Assembly: GCA_963782525.1 (NCBI GenBank)
Contig: CAWAKC010000003.1
Coordinates: forward strand, 32,001 to 96,000
DNA length: 64,000 nucleotides
Source of the DNA: Candidatus Bathyarchaeota archaeon
GTDB taxonomy: Archaea > Thermoproteota > Bathyarchaeia > Bathyarchaeales > Bathycorpusculaceae
Direction: 5' to 3'
The notes beneath the pieces are model-generated. The model was not told the origin of the DNA and ran no database searches. It worked only from the letters and a program-made list of their open reading frames with translations. This document shows positions 22,930-58,678 of this stretch, in pieces; the first letter of the stretch is position 1, and each line of letters begins with the position of its first letter. Both the position numbers and the translations under genes were made by a program.

Positions 22930-23952
22930 TAGGGGTGTGCAGAATTTAAGCTGCTTCCCAATTATGTTCTAGTATGGAAGCCTGTGAAGTTGTCAGGCTT
23001 TTCGTCAACAAAGCAATCGTTTCTGTAGAACCCAAAAGACGCGGAAATCCAGGCTACGGACGCCTAAGAGCACTAAGAGTTCTCGTTTATGCCAGACTGA
23101 AAGGATTAGAGAACGACACACGTGTAATTGAACATCTAAAGAAGCATACGGACGTTGCTAGAACACTTGGCTTATTCAAAGTACCCAATAGAACCACTGT
23201 TGGAAGATGGTGGAGACGCTATCTTGACGTTCTTGAAGAAACTTTTAAGAAGATATCGGCTATGCTTCAACTAGTGACACCGACCACTATTCTAATTGTT
23301 GACTCAACGCCGTTAGTGGATCTCTACGATATGGAAGCGGGCTGGGGTCACACGAGCCGTGGAAAATTCAGAGGTTTCAAGCTTCATGCAGCGGTAAATC
23401 AGCTGGGGTTGCCGTTGAGAGCAGTTGTTACGCCTGGTAATCGTTATGACTCGCCTTTTCTTCCCGGTCTCATTGAGGATTTGGAAGCAGAATACGTTTT
23501 GGCCGATGCGGGTTATGACTCGAAAACAAACAAAAGAGCAGCCAAGGGCATTGAAGCTGAGCCTGTTATTGCTCCTAATCCTAGAAGGGGAAAACGCAAA
23601 AGAATCAAACATGCTAGACTCTTGGAGACTAAGCGTTATGTGGTTGAGCAGTTTAATGGGCATCTTAAAGCTAACGTTTTGAGGAATTGCTGGGTGAGGC
23701 CTAAGGGTTTGGTGAAGAAGGCGGCTATGGTGATGGCTGGCTTGATTAGTTATGATGCTGAAGCAATACGATCGCTTATTGTTGGCGAGCAAAGTCTAAA
23801 AACGGTAAGCAAGTACTGGGCTTGACCCAACAACAAATGATCATGGAGCCCTCAAAGACACCAAATCAATGGTATTTACGGGTACGATCCCAGACTTGCT
23901 CAAAGATAACTTACCTATCGGAACTATAAAAAATGAATTGCGCACACGTCTA
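22930..23952 (+). mobile_element. Insertion sequence with DDE transposase (IS5/IS4-like)
   Basis: Imperfect terminal inverted repeats TAGGGGTGTGCAGAATT / AATTGCGCACACGTCTA. 7-bp target duplication ATTTATT at 22923-22929 and 23953-23959. Confidence 0.9.
22974..23825 (+). CDS. DDE transposase
   Basis: IVDSTPL, GFKLHAAV, LADAGYDS, KRYVVEQFNGHLK. Confidence 0.9.
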   Translation: MEACEVVRLFVNKAIVSVEPKRRGNPGYGRLRALRVLVYARLKGLENDTRVIEHLKKHTDVARTLGLFKVPNRTTVGRWWRRYLDVLEETFKKISAMLQLVTPTTILIVDSTPLVDLYDMEAGWGHTSRGKFRGFKLHAAVNQLGLPLRAVVTPGNRYDSPFLPGLIEDLEAEYVLADAGYDSKTNKRAAKGIEAEPVIAPNPRRGKRKRIKHARLLETKRYVVEQFNGHLKANVLRNCWVRPKGLVKKAAMVMAGLISYDAEAIRSLIVGEQSLKTVSKYWA

Positions 23953-24446: not shown

Positions 24447-24471
24447 GCGGTCGTAGTCTAGTTTGGTCTAG
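24447..24471 (+). repeat. att-like copy of the first 25 nt of the tRNA-Gly at 58573
   Basis: GCGGTCGTAGTCTAGTTTGGTCTAG is identical to 58573-58597. About 90 bp upstream is also homologous to ~58480-58572. Confidence 0.85.
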
Positions 24472-28078: not shown

Positions 28079-28647
28079 TAAAATTCGACGAGAATACTGC
28101 AGCCGTAGGCTGCAGATGAATCGTCCGTAAGCTCTTTTTGCCAACTTGCTATTTTGGGTTTCCTAGACGGCAGTTTGCGTCTACCGTCTAGGAGGTGTCA
28201 CAAAATGGGTTTGGAGTCTTTAAGCCATGGCTATGGGCAATGTGCGTTCCATATTGTGCTTGTGCCTAAGTATAGGCATAGGATATTTGTGGATCTTGGC
28301 ATTAAAAGCTGTTGCGAGAGGGCTTTGAGGGAGACTGCTTCTAGAATTGGCTGTCAAGTGTATGCTTTGCAGGTTGGTGCTGATCACGTGCATATCTTCG
28401 TCGGGTTGCATCCGGATTGTTCGGTGTCTGAAATGATTTGCCTCTTAAAGTGTAACAGTGCAAGGAGGTTGTTTTTGGAGCATCCTGAGCTTAAGAGTAA
28501 GCTTTGGAAGGGGCATCTTTGGTCTAGGGGTAAATTCTATCGTTCAATTGGCCAAGTTAACGCTGAAACAATCAAACGCTATATAGAACAGTCTAAGCAT
28601 CAATAGTTTTTTTGAGATACCGCAACCGTAAGGTTGCGGTCATTCAT
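28079..28647 (+). mobile_element. IS200/IS605-family element carrying tnpA only
   Basis: Inserted 3' of TTTAT (28074-28078) and ends in TTCAT, with no TSD. Subterminal hairpins ctgcagccgtaggctgcag and ccgcaaccgtaaggttgcgg. Removal rejoins ligase codons LKIKP. Confidence 0.85.
28205..28606 (+). CDS. tnpA: Y1 HUH transposase TnpA
   Basis: FHIVLVPKYR, DHVH, LWSRG, IKRYIEQ. Confidence 0.92.
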   Translation: MGLESLSHGYGQCAFHIVLVPKYRHRIFVDLGIKSCCERALRETASRIGCQVYALQVGADHVHIFVGLHPDCSVSEMICLLKCNSARRLFLEHPELKSKLWKGHLWSRGKFYRSIGQVNAETIKRYIEQSKHQ

Positions 28648-34955: not shown

Positions 34956-34978
34956 GCGGTCGTAGTCTAGTTTGGTCT
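34956..34978 (+). repeat. Second att-like copy of the tRNA-Gly 5' end
   Basis: GCGGTCGTAGTCTAGTTTGGTCT is identical to 58573-58595 and lies between two convergent integrase remnants. Confidence 0.85.
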
Positions 34979-35016: not shown

Positions 35017-35355
35017 TTATCTGCGTTCATACGAGAATATCCTCTTTTTGTATATTTTTACTCCCGGTTCCCAATCAGTGTCGTAAGAATAGCCATCATT
35101 AGTCAGCTTCAATGCTTCCTCAAGTGTCCTTGCAACAGCAGATACCCAATTCTCCTGACCTGTAGCGGCGGCAGCTTTAACTAAGTCAACGTACAATTGC
35201 GCGCTTGACCAGCTTTTATGTCCCAAAACAACCATAACAACCGCCAAGCTTTTTGTTGCAATGTAAATATCAGTGCCTTTCTTGTACCGCAAAGTATGGA
35301 AGTGAATCTTGCGCAACCGCGTATTTCCAGTGCGTATTATAATTCGTTTACGCAT
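35017..35355 (-). pseudogene. Tyrosine integrase C-terminal fragment
   Basis: HFHTLR, LGHKS and AQLYV catalytic motifs. N-terminal part deleted and fused to a GNAT fragment. Confidence 0.8.
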
Positions 35356-35729
35356 GCGCGATATTTCGGGTGAACAACTAAGCGGCTAATCAAGCTGATT
35401 TGAGCGTTAACTTCAAACATATTCATCTTTGGTAGAGCTAAGCGACGTCCAAAACAGGATGGCGAAGGATAACAATAAACGATCACTCCGCAGAGCTCAT
35501 TGCCACGCATTAACCTAAAGAAGTGCCTAGCGACTGATGTGTTATGTCCGCGGTAGTGGAAAGTGGCGAGTTTTAGCCAATCTTCCCGGGTGCCGACTTC
35601 AACTCTCATTTCTTTAATTAGGCTGCATTCGCTGGCTTTTGCGGATAGATATTTTATGTCGATTTCTTCTCCAAACCGCTTAATCACAAACACAGAAGGC
35701 GAAAGATCCTCAACTAGGTCGCTATGAGT
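35356..35729 (-). pseudogene. Internal fragment of a second ABC-ATPase/GNAT gene
   Basis: FHYRGH, ELCGVIVY, SRLVVHPKYR, collinear with the middle of 42589..44040. Confidence 0.85.
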
Positions 35730-35790: not shown

Positions 35791-35884
35791 AGATGTGCTT
35801 AATACATTAAGCGAATCCCCTTTTTGCCTTGGAAAATAACTATTGCGGGCTCGCTGGGAGTCGTTTAAACTATTAGGCGAATCC
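35791..35884. repeat. Two 28-bp imperfect palindromes left of the oxidase cluster
   Basis: 35791-35818 AGATGTGCTTAATACATTAAGCGAATCC and 35857-35884 GGAGTCGTTTAAACTATTAGGCGAATCC. Confidence 0.75.
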
Positions 35885-35990
35885 TGAATAAATTTGGGGC
35901 AAACCTGGGCAAACCTTCTCCCAATAGGTGAACCTGACTGGACTTAACCCCGAATAGGCATGGTCCATATACTGCAGCATGCGCTTAACT

Positions 35991-36434
35991 TTAGCTAAAG
36001 ATAAGATGTAGTGGATAATAGGCGATGCCAAGTCCGAGGGTTATTATCCAGATTGTTAGGATTTCCCACATCAACTTTTTCCGCGGCGCGCAGAACCGCG
36101 TTTCGCTAGATTCTCCCAACGCCCACTTGCCAACTAGCCAAATGCCAAGAGAAATTGTTACCAAACCTATGACGCCGTGAACAACTCCTAAAAGTGCAAC
36201 AACATTGAAGTCTTCCAACATTTCCGCTACTACCCGAACAAAAGAAGGCCCCATGTGAGCAATCGTTAGCAAGGTAGCAATCATGACGACAACCATCATG
36301 GTGTTGCCATGCCAAACAAACTTCTTTCGCCTTTGAAGAAAAATGCTTAGAATTATTAACAAACTTAAGACGGCAACTAAAATGATCAGATTTGCCTGCG
36401 ACATCCATTCATGAACCTCATTATAAGTTACCAT
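35991..36434 (-). CDS. DUF420-like four-TM protein, possible oxidase assembly factor
   Basis: RRKKFVWHGNTM, VVHG..G, WIITLGLGIAYY. Divergent from ccmF. Confidence 0.6.
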   Translation of the reverse strand: MVTYNEVHEWMSQANLIILVAVLSLLIILSIFLQRRKKFVWHGNTMMVVVMIATLLTIAHMGPSFVRVVAEMLEDFNVVALLGVVHGVIGLVTISLGIWLVGKWALGESSETRFCAPRKKLMWEILTIWIITLGLGIAYYPLHLIFS

Positions 36435-36801
36435 CCTTCAATCCTCGTCTTTGACTAATTAGTTTAAAAAACAATAAAACAGTTACTATCTAACCTGTTT
36501 TACACGTCATTTAAAAAAAAACTATACTTTGTCAAAGCCCACTACCAGCCCATTATGTTTAGCAATATGTTCTCAAAATTCTTTTTCTAGTCTCTTGTTT
36601 ATTCGCAGAATTCTACGATTAACCTGGAACCGCTGGACTAAGTTGTCTCAAGACTAAAGCCCAAATCTTACTGCCGTTAAAATGAAATCCCCGTTGTAGC
36701 TTTGGCCGTTGTTTTCCTTCAGTTTTCCTTGGATAGAAAAGCTGACAATAATTTTAAATAAGAATTCAGCTAAGCACATTTCTATAACTCTGGAATTCAA
36801 T

Positions 36802-38703
36802 ATGGACTTTGAAGTATTTTTTCTGCTCGCGGCCAGTTTGTTGCTCTTATTAGACATTGCTCTCTTGTCAACCATGAAATTAACTGCTAAACTAAAAAGA
36901 CAGTACATCCTTTTCGCCGCTTTTTCCATATTTGCCTTAATAATAACATCTTACGCGATGCTTCTGCAAGCTTTCATTGGCAACGATTTTTCTCTTGTTG
37001 GGGTGTACTCTTCCAGCTCCTCCAGTGCTTCTTTGTTTTCAAAAATTTACTCCAGTTGGGCTGGAGCTGGGGGCTCGATGCTTTTCTTAACAGTTCTGCT
37101 AAGCATATTTTACTTTATATTAAGAATTATAGCTTTCAAAAAACCCAACAAATTCAACACAATCACCTGTCAGATCTTCGGTGTGGTCCTCTTTGTTTTC
37201 ATAATTGTGTGTTTGCTAAGAAACCCATTCGAACGTTTTCCCACGGTTCCAGCGGAAGGAATTGGTCTCAACCCACAGTTGCAAAGTGTATGGATGGCGA
37301 TTCACCCACCAATAGTATTTTCAGCTTATGCCTTCGCGGTTTTGACCTTTGCGTTGACGATAGCAAGTATCAAGACAGATAGAGAACTTGATGACTCAAA
37401 ACTATTCAAAGCTTCAACCTACGCAGCTTGGTTACTTCTCACAATTGGGATAGCTCTTGGTGGACTTTGGGCTTACGAAGTCTTAGGGTGGGGTGGATAC
37501 TGGGCTTGGGATCCAGTTGAAACAGCTTCTCTGTTGCCTTGGCTTTTTCTAGTGGCGTATTTCGTAGTGAAAAATATTTCCAATGACAAGAAGAGCTTAA
37601 CACGAGAATTAATGATTATGATAACATTTGCCAGCCTAGTTTTCTTGAGTGCCCTAACCCGTGGAGGATTGACTCAATCAGTCCATTCTTATGCAGTATC
37701 GGCAATTGGTCCCATAATGCTTACATTTGCGGTGGGGATGGTTGTTTATTTCTTCTATGTGGCAAAAAACAAAAGAAAGCCTCTCTTCCAACTGGAAGTT
37801 AATAGGGCTTCTTTGTCGTCTCGTTCTTACTATCTGGGTTTCTGGGCGCTGATTCTCATAGCCGTCGTCTGCCTAGTGGGGCTGGCTTTTCCAGGTTTTG
37901 CCTATAGCTATTGGACCTACCCGTTTGTCGTTTTATTCGTCGTGGCTTTGATCGGTTACAGCTTCAAAGAGAAGACGCATTACGTTCGTCAACTCCTAAT
38001 AGTGGCTATTTCGTTAGTCGCGGGAGTAGCTATCTCGCTGATTGGATTTGCATCTGTAAATATCCTTGTCACATTTACAGTTCCTCTTTTACTGACTGCG
38101 TTTTTTTGCCTTATTTATAAACTGGCTAGAACTATTCGTCGGAGATCTCTACTTGGACAAAGCATATTCGCGTTAGCTGTAATTGTTTTACTCTTGGGTG
38201 TTTTTATGAGTGCGGGAGCAAAAACAGTAGTCACCTTAAACGACGTGAAAATTAATACGCCCCAAAAAGCTATGCAATTCGATATCGTGGTTACGGGTAT
38301 ACATATTGAAAACAGTACGATGCAGGTTTACAATTCACAAGCCAATTCTGTTATCCCGGAATATTCGATTATTAAAGCCGATGTCACAATGCGAGATTCT
38401 GATAGAATCTATCAAGGAAGCCTTTCTGCTTCCTTGTACCCAAACTATGGGTTGGTGATTAAGCCTTTAATTATTACGACAGAGACTGGTGATCTTTATG
38501 TCCATATAGAGTTCACGGACTCGCTTTACAATACTTTAATGCAAGCATCAAGCGGCAACAGTGTTGCGCCCAATGAAGTGGCAATTTCGGTTCAAAACAG
38601 TCCGCTGATCTACTTAGTCTGGGCAGGTGTTGTGCTCATGGCAATCGCCATATTAATTCAGTTCGCGAGCGATCTTTCTTCACAAAAAGAGTGGCGCTAC
38701 TAA
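36802..38703 (+). CDS. ccmF: Cytochrome c biogenesis heme lyase CcmF
   Basis: GIGLNPQLQ, MAIHPP, WAYEVLGWGGYWAWDPVETASLLPWL, LTRGG..SVHSY. ATG 36802 preferred. Confidence 0.92.
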   Translation: MDFEVFFLLAASLLLLLDIALLSTMKLTAKLKRQYILFAAFSIFALIITSYAMLLQAFIGNDFSLVGVYSSSSSSASLFSKIYSSWAGAGGSMLFLTVLLSIFYFILRIIAFKKPNKFNTITCQIFGVVLFVFIIVCLLRNPFERFPTVPAEGIGLNPQLQSVWMAIHPPIVFSAYAFAVLTFALTIASIKTDRELDDSKLFKASTYAAWLLLTIGIALGGLWAYEVLGWGGYWAWDPVETASLLPWLFLVAYFVVKNISNDKKSLTRELMIMITFASLVFLSALTRGGLTQSVHSYAVSAIGPIMLTFAVGMVVYFFYVAKNKRKPLFQLEVNRASLSSRSYYLGFWALILIAVVCLVGLAFPGFAYSYWTYPFVVLFVVALIGYSFKEKTHYVRQLLIVAISLVAGVAISLIGFASVNILVTFTVPLLLTAFFCLIYKLARTIRRRSLLGQSIFALAVIVLLLGVFMSAGAKTVVTLNDVKINTPQKAMQFDIVVTGIHIENSTMQVYNSQANSVIPEYSIIKADVTMRDSDRIYQGSLSASLYPNYGLVIKPLIITTETGDLYVHIEFTDSLYNTLMQASSGNSVAPNEVAISVQNSPLIYLVWAGVVLMAIAILIQFASDLSSQKEWRY

Positions 38704-38912
38704 GAATGTTGTTGGTTATCGAAGCTTATGTTCTGAATATACCTCAGTGTAATTAATGCAACAACGCTAACAAATTATTAGCTAATTTCACCGAGCATAC
38801 ATTATTGAGTTACAAAGTAAGCGCTTAATTAGATATGCTGTTGCTAACTTGTTCTAGCATAGTTTTAAAAAGCGATCGCAACAAAAGTACATTCGGAAAT
38901 TAGGGGTTTTTC

Positions 38913-40355
38913 ATGGCTGAGGCAGAGGCAACAAAAGCAGTAGTTACTAATGGGTTAGAGCCTGCTGATCTTAAGAGTGCGGACTCGGTGGCTAAGTATT
39001 GGCTTTATTCTGCTGTCCTTTGGTTCCCCATTTTTGCAACATTTGGAATGATAATGGCAATAAAGTTTTTTGTTCCAACGTTTCTTGTCGATTCTGCCTT
39101 CGATACATTTGGTAGAATCAGACCCGCCCACGTCAATGGACTGCTTTTCGGTTTCTTATCTTCAGGCCTAATAGGCGCAATGTACTACGTGGCTCCGAGA
39201 TTATCCCACGTTTCTCTATACAAGCCAATTCTCGGAAAAATTTCTGCAGTGTTGTGGAATGTCGGAGTATTGGCGGGAGTTCTCTTGATCATGAGTGGAG
39301 ACACACAAGCCCGAGAATACGCGGAATTTCCCTGGATAATAGATGTAGTGATTATGATTACATTGATCATCATTGGCATTACAATAATTGGCACAATCAT
39401 AAAAAGAAAAGAACGCAAACTCTACGTTAGCTTGTGGTTCTTTGCAGCCATATTTCTCTGGTTTCCCATAGTGTACTTTATCGGAAACGTGATGTGGCGA
39501 CCTCCATCTGGAGCGCTTTTCGGCTTGACCGATGCCATAGTCAACTGGTTTTACGGACACAACGTTTTGGGACTCTGGTTCACTCCATTCGGATTAGCCC
39601 TATGGTACTATTTCATACCTAAACTCTCAAAACGAGCTCTTTACAGCGTAACTCTATCTTTGATTAGCTTCTTTGCTCTGGCATTCTTTTACACCGGTGT
39701 AGGAGGGCATCACCTGCTACAGTCTTCAATTCCGGAATGGTTAAAAACTATAGCCGTTGCAACGAGCGGTCTGATGATGATTTCTGTTTTGACGTTTGCT
39801 ACGAACATTGGAATGACCCTTCGAGGCGCTTGGCACTCTGTTTGGAGTAATGTACCCTTACGGTTCATTGTTTTCGGCTTCATCAACTACATACTTGTTT
39901 CAATTCAGGGAACTTTCCAAGCGTTTCGTGATATGAACTTGTACTTGCATTACTCACAATGGCCTGTGATGCATTCGCATTTAGCGTTGTATGGTTCTTT
40001 TGCAATTACGATAATGGGGATGATGTATTTTTTGGTGCCTCGCCTCTCAGGAAGAAAACTCTGGAACAAAAAACTAATGGATGTCAGTTGGTGGCTAACC
40101 TTATTGGGTTTTATAATATTCATGGCCGGAATGATGCTAGCCGGATTAGTTGCAAACGCTAGCTGGTACACCCATCAGACTATCGTTCAAGCTTTACCAA
40201 CATTGACACCTTACTTAATTGTCAGAGCCATTGGTGGCGGCATAGTTGTTGTTTCCGCTTTCCTTTTCGCGATTGATATCATTATGACTATTTTTTCAAA
40301 ACCTTTGTCATCTCTTGAAAATGCAGAAACAATTGGAGGTGTGCGGAAAGAATGA
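38913..40355 (+). CDS. ccoN: cbb3-type cytochrome c oxidase subunit I
   Basis: FGRIRPAHVN, QAREYAE, NWFYGHNVLG, FFYTGVGGHHL and MHSHLALYG contain all six His ligands plus the helix VII Tyr. Confidence 0.9.
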   Translation: MAEAEATKAVVTNGLEPADLKSADSVAKYWLYSAVLWFPIFATFGMIMAIKFFVPTFLVDSAFDTFGRIRPAHVNGLLFGFLSSGLIGAMYYVAPRLSHVSLYKPILGKISAVLWNVGVLAGVLLIMSGDTQAREYAEFPWIIDVVIMITLIIIGITIIGTIIKRKERKLYVSLWFFAAIFLWFPIVYFIGNVMWRPPSGALFGLTDAIVNWFYGHNVLGLWFTPFGLALWYYFIPKLSKRALYSVTLSLISFFALAFFYTGVGGHHLLQSSIPEWLKTIAVATSGLMMISVLTFATNIGMTLRGAWHSVWSNVPLRFIVFGFINYILVSIQGTFQAFRDMNLYLHYSQWPVMHSHLALYGSFAITIMGMMYFLVPRLSGRKLWNKKLMDVSWWLTLLGFIIFMAGMMLAGLVANASWYTHQTIVQALPTLTPYLIVRAIGGGIVVVSAFLFAIDIIMTIFSKPLSSLENAETIGGVRKE

Positions 40356-41965
40356 GTGATGCTGAAAAGAAGTTTGAGGAAGAATTGGAGAGGCTAGAAC
40401 GAACTGCGGAGAAGAAAGTCAGAATAATAAAGAAGAAAACTCAATTTAAGAATTTGTTTCCGCTTGTTGCAGGTGGAGTAGCTGTCTTTCTTCTCATGGT
40501 TAGTATGGTTGTAGTTGCTCCCTACATGTTTCTTTTAGACATTCCTCCAAGCGATACCGCTCACGTGTATACAACGCAGGAAGCAGAAGGAAGAAACTTA
40601 TTCATGAGTTTGGGATGTTTCTACTGCCATTCTCAACAAGTCAGAGCTAGCGATTGGGGAATCGGCAATGTCTCTCAAGAAGGAGATTACGTGTACGATA
40701 GCCCAGCCGCGTTGGGTACAGAGAGGACGGGTCCAGATCTTGCTCAAATCGGTGGAATGCGCCCAACCCTGTGGCAGCAAATGCACGATAGGGACCCACG
40801 CAGTGTAAGCCCAGGTTCTTTAATGCCGAATTTCGGATTCTTAAGTGATGAGCAGATAGATGCTCTAGTAGCTTATATTCAAAATCTAGGTCAAGAAAAC
40901 CTCCAAGTTGAAGCTTCAATCACTAATGGTTCTTCTTTTCACCCTGCCGTACCAGACGAGTATGTGAACGCGACTAACCAGTTTACGCCAATGTTGATGA
41001 CTGCGTTGGCACAATATGACGTTGAAAATGACGCTTACAATGGAAATGCTACGTTTGGTGACCAATGGGGAGTCCTTTTTGATGCTGCTAAAGCTGATTA
41101 TACACAGTTTTGCCTGTCTTGCCATGGATGTTCAGGAAATGCAGAAGGCCCATATGCTCGGCATGTAGCGACTCAGCCTGCAAATCTGCATGAACGCATA
41201 GCTACATTTCCAGGTGACAGTTATGACATCTGGCGAGTGAGCGGCGGGGTACCTGGAACAGCCATGCCTGAATGGAGCCTTACACTTAATGCTACTGAAA
41301 TTAGGCTTTTAGCAGCTTATGAGTTGAGCTTTGTTTTTGGTTCCGCTAGAACAATTTCTGGCGATATCTCTGATGCTGAAGGAGACAACTTTGCTCAAAC
41401 AGTTCTTAACGTGCCGCCCATAGGTGGAACGATGCAGGATTACCAGTCGGGTAAAAGTCTATACACCTTGTACTGTGCACAATGCCACGGGAACGATGGG
41501 CAGGGAGATGGACCTGCCTCAAGTAAGGTTCAAGGTGGCTACATTGTCCCTGAACCCGCCAACTTTACCGAATCCGGAAACGACTTCATGTACTATGGAC
41601 GCTACGTTTGGAAAGTACAACAAGGCGTCGAAACAACAAATATGCCACCCTGGAAATATGCAATGACGGATAACGAAATTTACCAATTAGTCTTCTATGT
41701 GCAAAGCTTCTCAAAAGCCAGTGACTACAATACGAAATGGGCACCGCAGTATACTGATCAATATGCAAGGGACCTCAAAGGTGGCCCTGTCCAGTCTGGG
41801 TTGTTCACAAATCTTGAAACAAATCCAGTAGGAGCCTTAGTTGCTTTCATAGCTGTTCTTCTTTGGGATCGTAATTTTGAAAAACTACGAAATCTTTACC
41901 AAAATGCAAGGATTCAAATGCCAACCAAAGCTTTGAAATTATGGAGGTTAATCCCCTGGACATAG
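40352..41965 (+). CDS. ccoO: CcoO fused to two further cytochrome c domains (triheme)
   Basis: GCFYCHSQQVR, GTERTGPDL, SLMP, then CLSCH..AMP and CAQCH..NMP. Confidence 0.88.
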   Translation: MSDAEKKFEEELERLERTAEKKVRIIKKKTQFKNLFPLVAGGVAVFLLMVSMVVVAPYMFLLDIPPSDTAHVYTTQEAEGRNLFMSLGCFYCHSQQVRASDWGIGNVSQEGDYVYDSPAALGTERTGPDLAQIGGMRPTLWQQMHDRDPRSVSPGSLMPNFGFLSDEQIDALVAYIQNLGQENLQVEASITNGSSFHPAVPDEYVNATNQFTPMLMTALAQYDVENDAYNGNATFGDQWGVLFDAAKADYTQFCLSCHGCSGNAEGPYARHVATQPANLHERIATFPGDSYDIWRVSGGVPGTAMPEWSLTLNATEIRLLAAYELSFVFGSARTISGDISDAEGDNFAQTVLNVPPIGGTMQDYQSGKSLYTLYCAQCHGNDGQGDGPASSKVQGGYIVPEPANFTESGNDFMYYGRYVWKVQQGVETTNMPPWKYAMTDNEIYQLVFYVQSFSKASDYNTKWAPQYTDQYARDLKGGPVQSGLFTNLETNPVGALVAFIAVLLWDRNFEKLRNLYQNARIQMPTKALKLWRLIPWT

Positions 41966-41967
41966 AT

Positions 41968-42108
41968 ATGTTGATCTATATTATCGGTGCATTAGGAATC
42001 ACATTCATAACTGCTGGTTTTGTTGTCTGGAGTTTTGTAACCAAAGCGTTTGAAGGTAATGAAAATTTGAGGTTTAAGCCGCTTGAGGAGGATGAAACCG
42101 AGCAATGA
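41968..42108 (+). CDS. CcoS/FixS-like assembly microprotein (absent from the ORF track)
   Basis: MLIYIIGALGITFITAGFVVWSFVTKAFEGNENLRFKPLEEDETEQ: TM, then W..F, then acidic tail. Stop overlaps the next ATG. Start could be 41941 or 41956. Confidence 0.65.
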   Translation: MLIYIIGALGITFITAGFVVWSFVTKAFEGNENLRFKPLEEDETEQ

Positions 42109-42398
42109 GCTGGGACCATTTAGCTGCGACTGCCCGAATTGTTTTTGTGAATCCCACATATGCCTACTTAGCGCTGGTATTTGTTGGAGCAGCAGTGCTT
42201 GTCATTTACTTGATTGTTAGAAGTTCGGACGAGTTTTCGGTGAAAGACACTGAAGCGAACTCTGAAGACTTCGCTGGTGAAATACGTGACTCAAAGGGAC
42301 CTGTAACCATGTGGCTTTGGGCAGTTTACATTGCTTTAGCAGTATGGGCAATAGCTTATTTAATTCAGCACTGGGGAGAATTCGCTAGTTTTCCATAA
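42105..42398 (+). CDS. Two-TM protein resembling the CcoP N-terminal membrane domain
   Basis: EDFAGEIRDSKGPVTMWLWAVYIALAVWAIAY parallels the CcoP DGIxExDNPLPxWW..F..TI.FA..Y pattern. Confidence 0.6.
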   Translation: MSWDHLAATARIVFVNPTYAYLALVFVGAAVLVIYLIVRSSDEFSVKDTEANSEDFAGEIRDSKGPVTMWLWAVYIALAVWAIAYLIQHWGEFASFP

Positions 42399-42498
42399 AA
42401 AACCTTCATTAGGCATCGCCTAGACTTGAGGCATTGTTCTTCGCAAAATTTCTATTTTAAAAATATTAATAGTTTTCTTATATGTAGCACGCTATAGG

Positions 42499-42526
42499 GG
42501 ATTCGCTTAATATATTAGGCGAATCC
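42499..42526. repeat. 28-bp near-perfect palindrome right of the oxidase cluster
   Basis: GGATTCGCTTAATATATTAGGCGAATCC (13 of 14 pairs). The following ~40 bp is homologous to 35819-35860. Confidence 0.8.
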
Positions 42527-42588
42527 TTATTTTTTCTTGGAAAATATTGGTGGGGGGCTCGCTAGGATGTGGACTTGCGGCTGCAACA

Positions 42589-44040
42589 TTAAAATTCAAC
42601 TAACCTTCCTTCCAGAAGAGGTATTACTTTTGTTTGAAGTAGTAGCGCAACAGTTTTAATTAATTTGGCTAATTTTTCAGAGTCAGCAGCTTCAATGTAT
42701 TTAACATAATCCGCTGTTATTCCATAAGGCATATGTCTACTAGACGTTACTTCTTTTTTCAGGCGTGGCTGCGGATTCTTAAGCAAAACCTCGCGAACAC
42801 TACAGAGTTGCTTAGTATCCAAAGTATCCAGTTTAAGTTTAACGTAATGTTGGCTTCCCAGCAGCTGAACATCAAACCCCAGAGAAGATAATGTCTGTGA
42901 GATCTTAACAACAGATTTCACCTCTGTCTGTTGAATAATGCGGACCATACCTGCTTTCTCTGCAAAAGGCGAATACTTAGCCATAACCGCAATCAACTCA
43001 ACAAAATCCGTACCAACCAAAGGAAGTGACTCACGAATTAACTTCGCACCTAAACCAACAGTTCGGTATTTTGGATGAATAACTACACGGTTAATAGTGC
43101 TTAGTTGCTGGTTGATTTCTTGCATTGACATTCGAGGAAGAACCATACGTCTCCCAAAACACGCGGGCGGTGGATAAGTATATACTATAACTCCACATAG
43201 CTCCATCCCACGAGTTAGTCGGAAGATTTTCCGGACAACTGATGTTTTATGGCCGCGATAATGGAACCTGCAGAGTTTTTCCCAGTCTTGCCTGTTGCCC
43301 TCTTCAACTTTCATCTCTCGGATAAGGCTGCATTCATCCACGTGACTATTTGGGAAATATTCGATCTGAATTTCTTCCCCAAACCGCTTAACCACAAACA
43401 CAGAAGGCGAAAGATCCTCAATTAGGTCGCTGTGAGTTGTGGCGACAATTGCCGCTCTTCCTTGGGACCGTGTGATTTTCTGCAGGTTAAACGCAATTAT
43501 CTTTGCTGTGTCTCGGTCTAAGCAGGCTGCGAATTCATCCATAAGCCACCATTGCTTTTGGCTCTCGATGAGTTTGGCGATTCGGTAACGGTATTTCTGG
43601 CCATCACTGAGTTGACTGTAGGTGCGCAGGAAAAGAAAAGCATCATTCAACCCCACCTTACTTAGCAGCTCTATGCCTTGCTCAACAGTAGCGCCAACGG
43701 TTTCAATCAGTGGTTTTTCTGGGTCCACCTGGACCTCGCTTAGGTCGATTGCTTCTTCCCCCAAGTCTGCTCGAATGGCTCTTATCAAGACGCTTTTTCC
43801 GCTGCCACTATCGCCGGTGATGTAGACGATGTCTTTGGGTCCGATCTTTAGTTCAGCGTCTAAAACCTTGAATTTCCGGGTCTCATCGATGCCTAACCCG
43901 AAGGCTTCGGCGACAACTATGCTTCTAGGTGTTATCTTTGTGTTGGTTTCATAGCTGATGTTGAAGGTAAACTTGCCCGTGGTCTTATCGTATGTTCTTC
44001 TGCAGGCTCTTATTCTAAATCCTCGGCGTTTTCGTCTCAT
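42589..44040 (-). CDS. ABC-type ATPase fused to a GNAT (Mom-like) acyltransferase
   Basis: GDSGSGKS, LSDGQ, LMDEF, ATTH; then FHY, INRVVIHPKYRTVGLG, FAEKAGM. No TM partner. Possible frameshift in the last ~10 codons. Confidence 0.8.
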   Translation of the reverse strand: MRRKRRGFRIRACRRTYDKTTGKFTFNISYETNTKITPRSIVVAEAFGLGIDETRKFKVLDAELKIGPKDIVYITGDSGSGKSVLIRAIRADLGEEAIDLSEVQVDPEKPLIETVGATVEQGIELLSKVGLNDAFLFLRTYSQLSDGQKYRYRIAKLIESQKQWWLMDEFAACLDRDTAKIIAFNLQKITRSQGRAAIVATTHSDLIEDLSPSVFVVKRFGEEIQIEYFPNSHVDECSLIREMKVEEGNRQDWEKLCRFHYRGHKTSVVRKIFRLTRGMELCGVIVYTYPPPACFGRRMVLPRMSMQEINQQLSTINRVVIHPKYRTVGLGAKLIRESLPLVGTDFVELIAVMAKYSPFAEKAGMVRIIQQTEVKSVVKISQTLSSLGFDVQLLGSQHYVKLKLDTLDTKQLCSVREVLLKNPQPRLKKEVTSSRHMPYGITADYVKYIEAADSEKLAKLIKTVALLLQTKVIPLLEGRLVEF

Positions 44041-44985
44041 CTTGGCACCATCGTTACAAATTGTTCAGGAACAAGCTCGCAGGTTGCAAAGGCTGCTAGA
44101 GCAGTAGCCCAAAAGACGTCGTCGTGAGTGCCTTGGGGGTGGCTAAAAGCTAAGCCGCCATCCTTTCGCAGTGCGAAGCGTTCAACGTTAAATTCATTGC
44201 AGATGTCTATGCGGTAGGGTTTATCCCAACTTAGTAGTGGATAGAAGAAGCGTTTGTCTTACATTCTTTTTTTGAGAATACTTGCCATCTCGCTTTTTTT
44301 TGGTGAACTAAAGATTACCCCTTCAGCGTTATCGATTCCGGCGTTTTCCATATCTGCAATGAAGCTTGGACCTTCCCTGGTTATGTCCACTCGAATCTTG
44401 TTGAAGCCGCCCCAGCGATCCTGCAAGGCTTTGATGTAACCCAGAACGTAGGCGTCATAGGTTGGGTGCGGGAAAATCTTTAGATGCCTAAGCAACAGCT
44501 TTTGATCGACTCTCCCACCACACTTAGGACATAGAAATCCCGTGTTTGCGCAGGATCCAACCCAGCATAGAATTCACCTTCAAACTCCTCTTCAGGGTCA
44601 AACTCCGCTAAATCCTCGCCGCAGTTCTTGGTTGTCCCAATACATGAGGAGATTAGGCTTTGGGATAGCCAGACGTCTTCATCCTCAGCCCACTCTGCCT
44701 CCATTTCACGTCTCCATCTGGAGGGATCGTCACGCATTTGTTTTTTGATCTTCTCAAGAATAATCGTTTTCAGTGGACCGTTGGGTTCTTGGGCACGTTC
44801 CCAGGTTATGTGGTGGCGTGCAAAGTCATCGAAGTCCTTGTTGTTGCAAATCCGATAGAACAAGCTATCCGTGTTCCAGGGTGTGCTTGTGCAGATAAAC
44901 TTCCCGTTAGTGGTGCCTAAGGTGAAGAGTGCAGCGTCGTAGAGATCCTCGGCGTTTGGGATGAAGTTGAATTTCGTCAGCGTAG
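44037..44985 (-). pseudogene. Terminase large subunit remnant
   Basis: Walker B (YADE), coupling motif STPW, WRREMEAEW, nuclease AGLD.A, VDITREG, HDDVFWATALA. Several frameshifts; Walker A region missing; stop overlaps the ABC-GNAT start. Confidence 0.8.
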
Positions 44986-45086
44986 ACACAGTACAAATGA
45001 TTATTAGAAACTGAAAGAAAGTGTGGCACATATTATAAGAACACATTAATTGGGCGAAATATCACAGTTATTTGAGGTAAAATGAA

Positions 45087-50096: not shown

Positions 50097-50634
50097 AAAT
50101 ACTTGATGCAACCACGAAAGAGGCATTCTCAATGTAAACAACAAGAAGCACGCAGCAAAGCGATATGTAAGGCAGGGATGATTAACTCAATTCACGTTAA
50201 CAATACATAAGTGAAATAGCATAATTAACGTGCCGAGAAATAGTTCCGTGCTTAATTTCCTTAAAAGAAGTAACTGATACAATAAGGGGTAGTTTGATTG
50301 TTTTCTTGAATCAGCGGTGTCCATAATATTTGTTGTAGGATGTTATCTCGGGAGATTCTGTTTTTTCTAGCAAATCAGTAATATATTTACTTGCGGATTC
50401 TGAAGTGTCGATGTGTTGCCTCAAAGTTTTAAACAAAGAGGTAATGTATTATTTTATGCGAGTAAGGCCTATCCGAGGCAATGATGCCCGCAGTTGTGGG
50501 CTGGGAGTACTAGGATAGGGGTCGCAACTTTATTTTCGCCACAAATACCTGGATGTAAATGTTCCAAAAAAGATGAAAGAAAACTTCATAAGCAATAAAT
50601 TTTAATTAGAATTAGTAAATTGTGAGGAAAAAAC

Positions 50635-51034: not shown

Positions 51035-51625
51035 CTATTTCCTTTTGCCTTTTTCTTTAGCTACTTTTCTTAATTGCTTTTTTACAGCAGTATGCATTTT
51101 GGCTTCAGAAACCTCTTTTCCGCTCTGTTTAGACAGAGCTTCAGCTAAAGCGTTTCTAATTGCCGTTGTCATGGCCGCGCTAATAGCTTCGGTGGCAACT
51201 CTCTCGACAATACGACCGCCTGGGGTCGGACAATCATTACCACATGAGCTACAGATTTCGACTGGGCAATCATTACCACATGAGCTACAGATTTCGACTG
51301 GGCAATCATTACCACATGAGCTACAGATTTCGACTGGACAATCTTCAGCTATAACTCGCTCGCCAAATGCAGAATTCAACCATTTTTTGTATTCGGGCAT
51401 CGTTTTTTCAACGACGTCATGTATTGTTGATTGCAGTTTTGCATAGATTTCGGGGTTCAATTTTTCAATAGCCGGACTCTTTGCCAAGAGTACACGTAGA
51501 CGTTCATTTTGAACTTTAGTGAGTTTTTTGGTTGGAACATAGGCAGTTATTTTTTTCTTAGGAGCTGTTTTAGTTGGGTTTTTCAAGGGGTCTTTAGTCG
51601 ATGATTTATTTGTTGGCAAAAACAA
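51035..51625 (-). CDS. Hypothetical protein with an internal triple Cys-rich repeat
   Basis: (DCPVEICSSCGN)x3 + DCP between helical, Lys-rich flanks. Confidence 0.65.
   Translation of the reverse strand: MFLPTNKSSTKDPLKNPTKTAPKKKITAYVPTKKLTKVQNERLRVLLAKSPAIEKLNPEIYAKLQSTIHDVVEKTMPEYKKWLNSAFGERVIAEDCPVEICSSCGNDCPVEICSSCGNDCPVEICSSCGNDCPTPGGRIVERVATEAISAAMTTAIRNALAEALSKQSGKEVSEAKMHTAVKKQLRKVAKEKGKRK
51231..51343. repeat. 36-bp tandem repeat, three copies
   Basis: caatcattaccacatgagctacagatttcgactggg at 51231, 51267 and 51303. Confidence 0.95.
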
Positions 51626-52983: not shown

Positions 52984-54213
52984 TTATTTTGCATTGTTCA
53001 TGGAAAAAGCTTTTTCTGCGACTGCCCTGCCCAGTTGTCGTGCCTTCTGACGATCATTATCTGCAGGGTTACCGTATATTGAAAGCGGTTCTCCCACCAT
53101 TTCAAATCCCAAGGTAGCCAGTTCGGAAGCTGTTTTCCTTGTTGCTTCTCCACTCCACCCAAAACTTCCGAATACCGCGGCACATCTGTTGGAAAATTTT
53201 TTTGTTCTGAGCAAGTTTATAAAATCTGTGACTTTGGGAAAGATCTCGTGTTCATATGTGGGTGTTCCAACAATCAGTGCGGGTGATTCAACAAGAGCTG
53301 TTAAGGCGTCAACAGAATGGACTTCTGATAGATTGAAGCTGCTCATTGCACCTCCAGCTTCTGCGATACCATCGGCTATGGCAGGTAGGCATTTGGCGGT
53401 CATCCCATACATAGAGCCGTAAACGACGACAACTTTTTTCTTGTAAGTGCCCTTGCTCCAAGCGGCCCATTGGCTTAATGTTTCTTTTACGCTTTGGTTG
53501 TAAACTGGACCGTGACTTGGCGCTAAGACATCGATTTGTAGATTCATTTTTTCGAATTTCTCGATTGCTTTTTGAACCCATTCTCTTTGTCCGTTAAAGA
53601 CCGAGGCAAAATATTTTTGAGAGCATTCACAAATGTTCTGTTTCTCCATATCGATATCGGATTCCATTATGGTTCCCTGTGGTAGTTTTTTGAATGCTCC
53701 AAAGGCGTCACAACAAAACAGAATCCTATCTTCTGGTAGGTGGGTGGTCATGGTTTCAGGCCAGTGAAGCCAGGGAGTTTGAATAAAATGCAACGTTTTG
53801 GTTCCCAAAGAAAGCGTCATATCGTCACCTTTAATAACGATTGCTTGTGGGTCGGTTGCGTAGAATTTTTTAAATATACTTTGAGCGATTGGGGTATAGA
53901 CTATTTTGATGTTGGGTGCTTTTTGCAGCAAAGCTGGAATTGCACTAGTATGGTCGGGTTCCATATGATTGATGATTAAGTAGTCTATTTTAGAGATGTC
54001 AATTATTTGGCTGATTTTTTCGAAGTGCTCTTGGGCTTTTTTTTCGTGAACGCTATCTATGAGAGCGGTTTTCTCTGAGCCTTTAACTAGGTATGAGTTG
54101 TATGAAACTCCTTCTGGTATACTCCAGAGTCCCTCGAATAGTGGGGTTTCGGTATCGTTGACTCCCACCCAGAAGATGCCTGAGGATAATTGGAGAGGTT
54201 GATTATTGTACAT
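52984..54213 (-). CDS. fprA: FprA-type flavodiiron protein (O2/NO reductase)
   Basis: GVSYNSYL, NHMEPDH, HWPE, DAFG, PSHG, and flavodoxin YGSMYG.T, FGSFGWSGEA. Confidence 0.92.
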   Translation of the reverse strand: MYNNQPLQLSSGIFWVGVNDTETPLFEGLWSIPEGVSYNSYLVKGSEKTALIDSVHEKKAQEHFEKISQIIDISKIDYLIINHMEPDHTSAIPALLQKAPNIKIVYTPIAQSIFKKFYATDPQAIVIKGDDMTLSLGTKTLHFIQTPWLHWPETMTTHLPEDRILFCCDAFGAFKKLPQGTIMESDIDMEKQNICECSQKYFASVFNGQREWVQKAIEKFEKMNLQIDVLAPSHGPVYNQSVKETLSQWAAWSKGTYKKKVVVVYGSMYGMTAKCLPAIADGIAEAGGAMSSFNLSEVHSVDALTALVESPALIVGTPTYEHEIFPKVTDFINLLRTKKFSNRCAAVFGSFGWSGEATRKTASELATLGFEMVGEPLSIYGNPADNDRQKARQLGRAVAEKAFSMNNAK

Positions 54214-54382
54214 AGAATTACCTTCAATAATAAATCATGCTAAAGCATACTTGGCATTTAACTTTTATGTTAAGATGGATCTTTAAGTTAGATTTGTTTT
54301 AATAAAAAAGGTTGTCAGCTAACTTGAGTTAGTTAGCTTAATGTTATTTGAATCAATGTGGTCTTCTTTTGAGATTGGATTG

Positions 54383-54802
54383 TTAGATGAACATTGAAAC
54401 GTCTGCGCCGGCAGCAATGTCAAGGAAGGTTGCAGCGCCAACCATGCTGTCAACTTCAGGAACAAGGTCTTCTCTTTTGATTCCAAACATTTCCATCGTT
54501 GGTGTGCATGCGTAGATTGTACATTTGCCGGATTGCTTTATGCGTTTGAGCATATCGTATGGCGAAGGATATTTCATGCGTTCTAGATTCTTTCGCATGG
54601 TTTCTTCTAGATGTTTGTAGTCTCCAGGCAGCACTGCTTTTTCCATAGCGCCTTTTGCTAGACTTTGTAGCCCCCAAAATGTAAAGTATAAGTGTGCTTC
54701 CCAGCCCATGGCTACAGATGTGGATGCCAAAATGAAAGCGCAGTAGAGTTTGTCGATTGTTCCGCTTTGAACGACTAATGCTAATTTTTTGGTTTGACTC
54801 AT
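54383..54802 (-). CDS. DsrE/DsrF/DrsH-like (DsrE2-type) sulfur-relay protein
   Basis: LYFTFWGL, YACTPTM..FG, VGAATFL. Start ATG 54802 after GGTGA. Confidence 0.85.
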   Translation of the reverse strand: MSQTKKLALVVQSGTIDKLYCAFILASTSVAMGWEAHLYFTFWGLQSLAKGAMEKAVLPGDYKHLEETMRKNLERMKYPSPYDMLKRIKQSGKCTIYACTPTMEMFGIKREDLVPEVDSMVGAATFLDIAAGADVSMFI

Positions 54803-54954
54803 TTTTTTATCACCTTCTTTTCCTGTGGTGCACAATTTTGGCAGCAAAAACTAACTTTTTTTCCGTCTACTTCGGTGGTGTAAGCCGCAAGTTGGCAAGG
54901 TTCTTCCGAGATTTCAGCGTCGCAACATTTGCATTTGGTAGTTTCTTTTTTCAT
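54799..54954 (-). CDS. 51-aa Cys-rich TRASH/YHS-like metal-binding protein
   Basis: CKCC...PC...VDGKKVSFCCQNC; overlaps both neighbours. Confidence 0.65.
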   Translation of the reverse strand: MKKETTKCKCCDAEISEEPCQLAAYTTEVDGKKVSFCCQNCAPQEKKVIKK

Positions 54955-55336: not shown

Positions 55337-55337
55337 A

Positions 55338-58572: not shown

Positions 58573-58678
58573 GCGGTCGTAGTCTAGTTTGGTCTAGGAC
58601 ATCAAGTCCACTAGTACTCTTTGGACGTGCAAGCCTGCCACGCTGACGACCCGGGTTCAAATCTCGGCGACCGCACCA
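58573..58678 (+). tRNA. tRNA-Gly(GCC) with a 28-nt non-canonical intron at 29/30 (58605-58632)
   Basis: Acceptor GCGGTCG/CGACCGC-ACCA. Spliced anticodon arm TCAGC-CTGCCAC-GCTGA. BHB formed by TAGG ACAT CA|A GTCCA ... TGGAC GTGC AA|G CCTG. Confidence 0.88.

Follow-up and report, generated by a model that had tools for sequence, protein, structure and literature searches.

A probable cbb3-type oxygen reductase cassette with a CcmF-like haem lyase in a Bathyarchaeia genome

Haem-copper oxidases of the C family (cbb3-type) are described as sparse in Archaea in the passages of Murali et al. (2024, PMC11214002) that bear on this study, and the same passages introduce new families of nitric oxide reductase (NOR) without the active-site Tyr. 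Among Bathyarchaeia, Hou et al. (2023, PMC10321748), in the portion cited here, give Houtuousia, a soil genus, as the only one with cytochrome c oxidases; these are Sulfolobus-like and occur in genomes without the Wood-Ljungdahl pathway and PFOR. A microoxic lifestyle of Bathy-6/Baizomonas has been based on pyruvate oxidase and superoxide dismutase (SOD) in the relevant part of Pan et al. (2020, PMC7110647), a paper whose main text does not contain the word "cytochrome", and a 2025 review (PMC12694404) repeats the oxygen traits of Houtuousia and Bathy-6. As reported in these passages, the traits point to some Bathyarchaeia living at low O2. The cbb3 oxidases in the cited parts of PMC7565565, PMC13502194, PMC10386581, and PMC13503563 belong to bacterial metagenome-assembled genomes (MAGs), and our search of the full-text literature turned up no report of a cbb3 oxidase in Bathyarchaeia; the supplements of PMC11214002 and PMC10321748 lay outside that search and may list these genes. 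Here, we analyzed a probable cbb3-type oxidase cassette in a stretch of 64,000 nucleotides from a Candidatus Bathyarchaeota archaeon (GCA_963782525.1, contig CAWAKC010000003.1, positions 32,001 to 96,000), hereafter the window, which is part of a contig of 463,547 bp in a Bathyarchaeia MAG (2.87 Mb in 12 contigs, 95.8% completeness, 2.7% contamination).

Two accessory systems are relevant for comparison. Archaeal cytochrome c maturation has been assigned to CcmABCEF, with CcmABC and CcmE required, and the archaeal Ccm genes were inferred to have been acquired from bacteria (Gupta, Shalvarjian, Nayak 2022, PMC9084895, in the sections drawn on here). CtaM (DUF420) is required for active haem-copper oxidases and was recently proposed to be a copper exporter (PMC9145763 and PMC13344008, in the passages concerned).

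Gene content of the cassette and its closest relatives

We identified six open reading frames (ORFs) at window positions 35991-42398, all uninterrupted, in a cassette that spans ~6.5 kb and whose GC content (0.41-0.44) equals that of the genome. Families were assigned by Pfam and NCBIfam profile searches.

35991..36434, minus strand: DUF420/CtaM-like 147-aa four-helix membrane protein, candidate CuB/copper assembly factor (ORF, Atlas likeness)
36802..38703, plus strand: CcmF/NrfE-like cytochrome c haem lyase, 633 aa (PF01578, 1.9e-29)
38913..40355, plus strand: CcoN, catalytic subunit of a C-family (cbb3-type) haem-copper oxidase (PF00115, 7.3e-80)
40352..41965, plus strand: CcoO fused to a di-haem CcoP-like cytochrome c, three CxxCH (PF02433 FixO, 3e-32), hereafter CcoOP
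41941..42108, plus strand: 55-aa single-helix membrane protein, candidate small subunit or assembly factor (conserved, no family match)
42105..42398, plus strand: 97-aa two-helix protein, a free-standing FixP_N-like domain corresponding to the membrane-anchor part of CcoP (weak FixP_N match)

We consider this probably a genuine, intact cbb3-type O2-reductase cassette that is resident in the Bathyarchaeia genome. A preliminary description of the locus had listed DUF420-like, ccmF, ccoN, ccoO, ccoS-like, and CcoP-N-like genes as uninterrupted; the six reading frames are indeed intact, and two of the labels, DUF420-like and ccoS-like, are weaker than the others.

The best NCBIfam matches of CcoN were ccoN models (270-284 bits), and a comparison with all solved structures placed cbb3 CcoN (9g6b, 3mk7) at 224-226 bits, ba3 at ~45-50 bits, and NorB of cNOR at 30-33 bits. 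In the alignment to Pseudomonas stutzeri CcoN (3mk7_A), the His of RPLH/RPAH, YGHN, HH, and HVH/HSH were all kept, the EYAE motif was kept, and the Tyr six residues ahead of the HH pair aligned with the Tyr of VYIWAGPHH, in agreement with the earlier statement that the six His ligands and the helix-VII Tyr of family C are present. H73, H216, H266, H267, H354, H356, and this Tyr were invariant in a 13-sequence alignment reaching down to 36% identity, and Bathyarchaeia copies that have diverged to 65% identity keep every ligand. After the P. stutzeri structure, we take the six His to be two ligands of the low-spin haem b, one of haem b3, and three of CuB. On these matches, CcoN is a true catalytic subunit of the C family (cbb3) and not a NOR.

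The start of ccoOP overlaps the stop of ccoN (ATGA). Its product matched FixO (PF02433) at 3e-32 over residues 43-170, PF13442 at 3.1e-25, and PF00034 at 3.2e-22, with solved CcoO structures matching at 74-83 bits, and thus consists of a FixO-type mono-haem part adjoining ccoN and two further c-type domains, that is, cytochrome c subunits instead of a CuA subunit. CcoOP was the sole ORF with at least 2 CxxCH among the 8229 ORFs of the genome, and the gene formerly called a triheme ccoO, which does encode three CxxCH, can be specified as a CcoO-CcoP fusion.

The 97-aa protein matched FixP_N (PF14715) at an E value of 0.004 and 17.3 bits, under the cut-off of 24.9 bits, so that the CcoP-N-like label found its profile but only as a weak, subthreshold match. 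Homologues of this gene trail the oxidase in 9 of the 10 bacterial and Methanoperedens loci compared (L025-L034; L032 gave no match). The predicted complex of the 97-aa protein with CcoN scored 0.78, with 0.01 for the best of three controls; 58 of 80 solved complexes attained this mark, as did 2 of 110 mismatched pairs. The runs agreed in at least 78% of contacts, and the partner pLDDT was at least 72. Solved cbb3 structures contain the CcoP N-terminus, and the score is for this reason to be read as likeness rather than as proof of binding; the model suggests that the 97-aa protein binds CcoN but may reflect likeness to solved cbb3.

For the 55-aa ORF, no relevant Pfam or NCBIfam match was obtained at E<=10, and neither a CcoS/FixS nor a CcoQ/FixQ profile was matched. 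The ccoS-like label thus has no profile support; any CcoS/CcoQ likeness is one of motif only and is unproven. Across the Bathyarchaeia loci the protein itself is conserved, a GFV.W and PL.ED pattern being invariant in it.

Likewise, the 147-aa protein had no Pfam match, PF04238 included, at E<=10. In the Atlas, which scores likeness by a language model, 28 of its 30 matches were clusters partly labelled DUF420 (PF04238), with a top score of 0.95 and the label on 26-32% of the cluster members. The DUF420-like name is thus backed by the Atlas and not by Pfam, and we treat the likeness as a lead, not as membership. The gene was near the cassette in 10 of 10 Bathyarchaeia loci examined, with invariant VHEW, WHGN, and HMGPS motifs, and occupied three places: upstream and divergent (window, L017), downstream (G001), or between ccmF and ccoN (the others; G and L numbers denote our genomes and loci, and C numbers contigs). 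In Bacillus subtilis and Staphylococcus aureus, CtaM is likewise a small membrane protein of four helices that is encoded alongside a haem-copper oxidase; it is tied to A-family, haem A-containing oxidases in the review passages cited above, whereas the cassette gene accompanies a C-family enzyme and lacks the Pfam DUF420 match.

The CcmF-like ORF is open from TTG 36709, and homologues of 630-640 aa indicate a probable start at ATG 36802. An A/T-rich TTTTAAATA stretch lies ~30 nt upstream of this ATG and may be an archaeal-type promoter. The protein aligned end to end with TIGR03145/TIGR00353 (CcmF/NrfE) at 173/167 bits, far under the cut-offs, and with Thermus CcmF (6zmq) at 144 bits. In 11 Bathyarchaeia sequences, WWD, the preceding His H199, and H326 (SVHSY) were invariant; we take H199 and H326 to be P-His1 and TM-His1, respectively. 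A homologue search with this protein listed its own clade alone, at 54-95% identity. The full-length gene was identified, adjoining ccoN, in exactly the same 16 of 120 genus genomes as CcoN, and nine further genus genomes had weak partial matches only (E ~1e-11), to a different PF01578 gene. The proposal that the oxidase has its own haem lyase agrees with this adjacency in 16 of 16 carriers. The archaeal CcmABCEF system, in the cited sections of PMC9084895, shares with the cassette a CcmF-family protein, the WWD domain, P-His1, TM-His1, and the inferred bacterial acquisition; the cassette differs in that CcmE and CcmC were not found, the His after WWD is missing, and CcmF is unsplit.

Compared with canonical cbb3 oxidases (CcoNOQP/FixNOQP; P. 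stutzeri 3mk7/5djq, rhizobial FixN), the cassette is alike in fold, the six His, the Tyr, EYAE, and the FixO-type subunit after ccoN, and it also holds a FixP_N-like membrane segment and a di-haem c domain. It differs in the identity of CcoN, only ~27-35%, in the Gln that replaces the FEGP Glu, and in its archaeal host. Further, the canonical CcoP is split in the cassette, with the haem domains fused to CcoO and the N-terminal membrane part as the 97-aa gene, and beside the cassette we saw neither a ccoGHIS cluster nor System I/II machinery.

The closest relatives are fused CcoN-O-P oxidases of Chloroflexota, Actinomycetota, Bacillota, and Methanoperedens (L025-L034; 49-58% identity), which have the three-haem O-P arrangement in common with the cassette and are followed, in the nine loci mentioned above, by the FixP_N-like gene. 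In all 10, N, O, and the di-haem part form one ORF of 879-956 aa, whereas the Bathyarchaeia have two genes with an ATGA overlap. Of the loci searched, only those of Bathyarchaeia had the CcmF-like, DUF420-like, and 55-aa genes, and the CcmF-like query gave a weak partial match in only two of these 10 loci, in both cases to CcsA. ResB and CcsA (System II) were beside the oxidase in two bacterial loci, and ResB was at the contig end in a third, with no CcmF-like gene; set beside the CcmF-like gene of Bathyarchaeia, this makes a private cytochrome c synthase by the oxidase a recurring theme, with different systems per lineage. The split N / O-P arrangement, the free FixP_N protein, the DUF420-like gene, and a CcmF-like lyase without CcmE or CcmC are, as far as gene content tells, the new features of this variant. 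Three of the bacterial loci (L025, L027, L030) had the order fused ccoNOP, FixP_N-like gene, DUF4399-domain protein, and ResB/CcsA, a bacterial version of a "self-contained" module, and the Methanoperedens loci had P-type ATPase and glycine-cleavage H proteins nearby.

Ancestry, distribution, and genomic context

We built CcoN trees with IQ-TREE, as a quick run of 92 rows (the window, 8 named-genome loci, 78 of 80 contig loci, P. aeruginosa ccoN, Rhizobium etli fixN, Sinorhizobium meliloti NorB, ba3 subunit I, and CtaD, with L023 left out as too short and L024 as split) and as a careful run of 49 rows picked to represent every clade; the two trees agreed in topology. Bathyarchaeia CcoN formed one clade (100/100, 49-row tree), and its sister group (100/99) consisted of seven bacterial rows from Thermoleophilia, Dehalococcoidia, Dehalogenimonas, Chloroflexia, Dehalococcoidales, Clostridia, and Humimicrobiales. 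Three Methanoperedens rows joined next (100/100) as a separate archaeal branch, and this whole group was nested among sequences of Chloroflexota, Actinomycetota, Bacillota, and Desulfobacterota. NorB, ba3, and CtaD fell outside the ingroup, whose branch had a support of 86/88, and the canonical proteobacterial pair was inside the ingroup on a very long branch that leaves its exact place unsure.

A single archaeal CcoN clade, a group named after the tree was seen, was rejected by the approximately unbiased (AU) test (25 log-likelihood units worse, p-AU 0.0025), which indicates at least two inter-domain transfers of C-family oxidases, one for Bathyarchaeia and one for Methanoperedens. Given the bacterial surroundings, transfer from bacteria to archaea would be the more economical direction, the root of the subclade not being established. 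The nearest bacterial CcoN were 52-58% identical to that of the window and the Bathyarchaeia copies 65-100%, so this genome got the cassette from other Bathyarchaeia or by descent and not directly from a bacterium. The earlier suggestion that the archaeon acquired the module is supported by its nesting within a bacterial C-family subclade, with the caveat that the transfer from bacteria is ancient and did not go directly into this genome. We propose an ancient bacterial origin for the core ccoN-ccoOP-FixP_N unit, in a C-family subclade with N, O, and P fused; in Bathyarchaeia the fused unit would have been split, joined to the CcmF-like and DUF420-like genes, and then spread patchily as a cassette.

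CcoN was identified in 16 of 120 species representatives of the genus (14 of 73 high-quality genomes) and in 11 of 401 sampled genomes of the class, covering 5 of 131 genera at 65-100% identity. Metagenome proteins added >80 further clusters at >=70% identity to CcoN, and JGI automatic annotation names many of these homologues cbb3 subunit I/II. Identity followed taxonomic distance, with 94-96% in the closest genus members, 73-78% in other genera or another family, and 65% in another order. The distribution of the cassette is patchy.

Each of the 10 Bathyarchaeia loci compared had the five-gene core and the 55-aa gene, with almost nothing in common between the flanks. The closest relative, L017 (92% nucleotide identity), matched only 35985-42442 and had no flank similarity in the window, and G001 matched 36750-42466 plus an inverted 35857-36489, its own flanks mapping to contigs C5 and C1 of this genome. 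Overall, similarity to the relatives' cassettes started at 35857-35985 and ended at 42442-42466. DNA contigs of three other runs carried ccmF-ccoN-ccoOP at ~96-97% identity and diverged near 35.9 and 42.46 kb (42458). Around these ends, we annotated repeats and remnants of mobile genes in the window.

35792..35885, no strand: left border repeat, two copies of a motif with a palindromic core (repeat search)
42496..42567, no strand: right border repeat, 76-87% like the left one (repeat search)
35017..35355, minus strand: integrase C-terminal fragment, 112 aa, beside a tRNA 5' copy (PF00589, 4.7e-6, profile 115-168 of 172)
35337..35693, minus strand: ABC-type ATPase gene fragment, 118 aa, paralogous to residues ~201-328 of 42589-44040
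42589..44040, minus strand: intact 483-aa ABC-type ATPase with a C-terminal GNAT-like part (PF00005, 5.1e-10; phrog_293, 1.4e-33)
44259..45046, minus strand: terminase large-subunit remnant, two ORFs of 78 and 188 aa (phrog_2, 2e-12 for the 188-aa ORF, profile 373-500 of 807)
24447..24469, plus strand: partial tRNA 5' copy with similar upstream sequence (exact 23-nt match)
34956..34978, plus strand: second partial tRNA 5' copy, beside the integrase fragment (exact 23-nt match)
58573..58675, plus strand: intact intron-bearing tRNA gene, a likely integration target bounding the variable region (Rfam tRNA, 41.9 bits)

The border repeats are ~70-95 nt long and were not present at the relatives' loci. 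Their 12-nt core has four occurrences in 2.87 Mb of genome, every one of them at one or the other border of the cassette. The 23-nt tRNA 5' segment has 3 exact copies in the window against 0 expected, and the tRNA at 58573 has a 39-nt insert in its anticodon arm. Synteny with relatives resumes at ~59.7 kb, and the variable region looks like piled-up integrations at a tRNA gene. For a tRNA-targeted element as carrier of the cassette, we found a truncated integrase, sharper borders belonging to the cassette itself, and no empty site. The integrase, ABC ATPase, and terminase fragments agree with the description of the flanking mobile genes as decayed, and the tRNA-fragment repeats, the integrase, insertion sequences (IS), the terminase fragment, and flanks that differ in every relative examined agree with that of a mobile region.

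Vertical descent is the strongest competitor of this reading. A cassette present in an early Bathyarchaeia ancestor may have been inherited with many losses, its contexts differing through general genome shuffling, and the monophyly of Bathyarchaeia CcoN (100/100), the fall of identity with taxonomic distance, the genome-like GC of the cassette, and the poor synteny of the genus would all fit. Since that synteny is poor overall, a differing context is weaker evidence for mobility than the sharp ends of the cassette. We nevertheless regard vertical inheritance with many losses as rather unlikely, with carriers limited to 16 of 120 species and 5 of 131 genera, two copies in one genome (G107), and the same-genus G022 grouping with G345 and G434 of other genera, at a weak support of 86/83. 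The match to L017, at 92% along the cassette, has sharp ends and leaves the flanks in the window without similarity; together with the position of the window copy between tRNA-fragment repeats with integrase and terminase remnants, it also argues for patchy spread as a cassette.

Two candidates were tried and rejected in this connection. A cassette-free form running from joints 35486/35498 to 43529 (run X1) had sides of only 20-29 letters and was read as a cross-alignment of the ATPase fragment with its paralogue, the two being 89% identical over 81 nt and 66% over 128 aa. A virus-borne cassette was sought in two IMG/VR scans (CcoN; alignment) that gave no relative, for those patterns only.

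Several features of the flanks were recorded in their own right. The terminase-ATPase pair (42589-45046) recurs on contig C6 (14557-17225), where identities of 84% at the nucleotide level and of 86-93% were recorded; this copy shares only window 42610-44996 and yields no empty-site comparison. The C6 ATPase copy is frameshifted, more terminase fragments were identified on contigs C7 and C1, and a 484-aa terminase homologue lies near the cassette in L012/G015. An IS with a DDE_Tnp_1 transposase (22974-23825) and an IS200-type Y1 transposase (28154-28606) lie in the left part of the variable region, and a tRNA-Gly is at 22263-22339. The 913-aa protein at 18367-21108 (minus strand) is one of a strongly expanded family, five relatives having 20-59 matches in each genome, and is useless as a synteny marker. 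An Rfam DUF3800-X RNA (50456-50527, plus strand; 67.1 bits, gathering 38.2) in the variable region has a 196-aa ORF on one side and, on the other, a 350-aa ORF without a known family, and three overlapping copies of a 44-nt unit (51228-51343; 36-nt spacing, 95-100% identity) lie in or beside ORF 51035-51625. A 170-190-nt sequence by G001's cassette (L010, 15566-16033) matches many contigs of the genome at 76-87% and may be a small repeated element or RNA gene.

Haem supply, electron donors, and competing explanations

The genome encodes the acetyl-CoA synthase subunit CdhC and two sets of complex I-type antiporter subunits, one of them ~32 kb downstream of the cassette. Genome searches identified no second haem-copper oxidase (a single PF00115 match) and no cytochrome bd. 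From the presence of CdhC and the lack of any other oxidase among the search results, the host is an anaerobe by core metabolism, as had been presumed. It differs from Houtuousia, as portrayed in the cited portion of PMC10321748, in having CdhC and a C-family enzyme as its only oxidase.

Several observations weigh against a functional, genuine cbb3 cassette, in addition to the poor synteny of the genus. CcoN reached 270.3 bits against TIGR00780 (ccoN), whose equivalog cut-off is 583.15, and it has Gln, invariant in 13 sequences, where P. stutzeri FEGP has Glu; we take this Glu to be hydrogen-bonded near haem b3 and the proximal His in canonical cbb3. The genome search identified no cytochrome b (bc complex), no electron donor, and no other multi-haem cytochrome, with one small Rieske protein only, and hence the suggested look for a bc/ACIII complex or other donor came back negative. 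No CcmC was found, the sole PF01578 gene in this genome of 95.8% completeness being the CcmF-like gene of the cassette, and CcmE (PF03100) was identified in 0 of 120 genus genomes, this one included. The best AhbC match was 221.6 bits against a curated cut-off of 650, among 22 radical-SAM matches. The His that follows WWD in Thermus CcmF is replaced in 11 of 11 Bathyarchaeia CcmF-like sequences, with H424 (9 of 11) and H599 (10 of 11) as candidates for the remaining two His positions. Further, broken copies were identified in G107, G112, G104, G106, G097, L018, and L024: G107 has two copies, both interrupted; G106 has a stop in ccmF; G097 and L018 have a split ccmF; and L024 has split ccoN and ccoOP. 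These indicate that the cassette is dispensable in some lineages, with ongoing loss there. The frameshifts or stops in ccoN or ccmF were located on G107:C14 (two places), G112:C12, G106:C1, and G097:C6.

We read the low CcoN score as that of a divergent C-family subclade, which on the trees this CcoN is, and not of the canonical proteobacterial type. At the position of the FEGP Glu, Gln stands in 64 of the 89 ingroup rows, Thr in 8, and Glu in 2, which are the proteobacterial references; the pattern did not resolve the other 15. The Gln is accordingly a trait of the non-proteobacterial part of the family. The CcmF-like protein would be dedicated to this oxidase, because no other multi-haem c-type cytochrome was found in the genome. 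Haem c attachment by it alone is unproven, since CcmC and CcmE were not found and the second periplasmic His is missing. With no electron donor, no CcmABCE, and no proven haem synthesis route found in the genome, the module can be called self-contained only tentatively.

The same gaps could mean that the cassette is an orphan, non-functional in a host without electron donor, CcmABCE, and perhaps haem synthesis, and carried passively on mobile DNA. The lack of cytochrome b, other cytochrome c, CcmC, and CcmE among the search results, the subthreshold AhbC, the broken copies in several relatives, and the place of the window copy among decayed mobile genes would suit such an orphan, which we consider unlikely in view of the selection on the genes. 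In comparisons of the window with L017 or G001, dN/dS was 0.04-0.07 for ccoN and ccoOP and 0.08-0.15 for the CcmF-like, DUF420-like, and 97-aa genes; all five genes are thus under purifying selection, as claimed earlier, in two comparisons, and all six ORFs are intact. The CcmF-like gene and CcoN occur together in 16 of 16 carriers, and the ligands are kept at 65% identity. Three short contigs of one wetland RNA-library run were 98-99% identical to ccoN (39489-39682) and ccoOP (40691-40841, 40918-41068), only a hint of transcription, DNA carry-over being possible in an RNA library; ccmF, the DUF420-like gene, and most of the cassette had no cover, from which nothing was concluded.

That the enzyme is mainly a nitric oxide reductase or NO detoxifier seems to us distinctly unlikely, even though a NOR side activity in the C family, cNOR and qNOR as closest relatives, and the Gln that replaces the FEGP Glu, presumably near haem b3, speak for it. 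In the passages of Murali et al. (2024, PMC11214002) used here, A-, B-, and C-family oxidases reduce NO less efficiently, oxidase-to-NOR transitions are repeated, and the NOR families are without the active-site Tyr. All 89 ingroup rows had that Tyr, as Y-x5-HH, and the three His ligands of CuB are intact. The HLWVEG motif with the FeB Glu of NorB was found in 0 of 89 rows and also not in the window CcoN, as already remarked in the preliminary description; the S. meliloti pSymA NorB that served as reference, verified at 666 bits to PDB 4xyd, has HLWVEG and not Y-x5-HH. The comparison with the oxidase families A, B, and C and with NOR thus comes out on the side of cbb3, at 226 bits against 33 for cNOR NorB, which fell outside the ingroup in both trees. 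A gene for a flavodiiron protein, an O2/NO scavenger, 10 kb away also counts for the NO reading. The gene belongs to a group at 52984-56525 (minus strand) that also encodes a class-V aminotransferase/cysteine desulfurase and a DsrE-like protein. The flavodiiron protein (ODP beta-lactamase fold plus flavodoxin) is a second candidate O2/NO scavenger on the same variable region and has a 33%-identical paralogue on contig C1.

Bacterial contamination or a chimeric join in the MAG, which the bacterial identity of the nearest non-Bathyarchaeia relatives and the contamination estimate of 2.7% might suggest, is hardly credible for a 463,547-bp contig with genome-like GC, an XPB-Bax1 pair, and an intron-bearing tRNA, when the cassette also lies inside single-contig 2.7- and 2.9-Mb same-genus genomes (G014, G085) and 8 Bathyarchaeota, Bathyarchaeia, or uncultured-archaeon loci, other-sample contigs bridge ccmF-ccoN-ccoOP, and the closest bacterial CcoN are only 52-58% identical. 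Those eight loci have the CcoN nearest to that of the window among named public genomes (74-96% identity) and are from Candidatus Bathyarchaeota, Bathyarchaeia, or an uncultured archaeon, and two are identical to same-genus loci (G015, G022). The tRNA and the XPB-Bax1 pair are in the window itself, and the host is, as previously stated, an archaeon; it is uncultured.

Proposed function and meaning for Bathyarchaeia

We return to the reading of the cassette as a resident cbb3-type O2 reductase, which we think likely as a whole, including O2 reduction, the accessory roles, the physiology, and the direction of transfer. CcoN would contain a low-spin haem b and a haem b3-CuB site with a cross-linked Tyr and would reduce O2 to water, and electrons would enter through the membrane-anchored three-haem CcoO-CcoP fusion on the outward-facing side of the membrane. 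The FixP_N-like 97-aa and the 55-aa proteins may be small membrane subunits or assembly factors, the CcmF-like protein would attach haem to the three CxxCH sites, and the DUF420/CtaM-like protein may supply or insert copper. Its most likely role is O2 scavenging or microaerobic respiration where oxic and anoxic zones of soil, wetland, or sediment meet, and some sediment and soil Bathyarchaeia can probably consume oxygen.

More tentatively, and with real doubt on our part, the cassette might be a plug-in unit for O2 respiration, in which a single CcmE-independent CcmF-like protein delivers and attaches haem and a non-cytochrome donor passes electrons to a surface-exposed oxidase. Candidate donors would be external reduced humics or Fe(II), a small protein of the copper or Rieske type, and the membrane carrier used by the nearby complex I-like enzyme. 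Exposure of the oxidase on the surface of a cell without an outer membrane is an equally speculative part of this proposal. If true, such a unit would let the Wood-Ljungdahl "anaerobes" of Bathyarchaeia respire or strip O2, with the trait moving as one 6.5-kb piece.

The cassette raises the questions of whether a CcmF-family protein can mature cytochrome c without CcmE and CcmABC and of what the electron source is for a cbb3 oxidase in a cell without a bc complex or other cytochrome c. Carbon-cycle models treat Bathyarchaeia, which rank with the most abundant archaea of sediments, wetlands, and soils, as strict anaerobes. With a conserved, putatively high-affinity oxidase in ~1/8 of the species of one genus and in a few other genera, part of the group could consume O2 at oxic-anoxic interfaces, and such consumption, if true, would change the view of the niche, cultivation, and oxygen tolerance of Bathyarchaeia.

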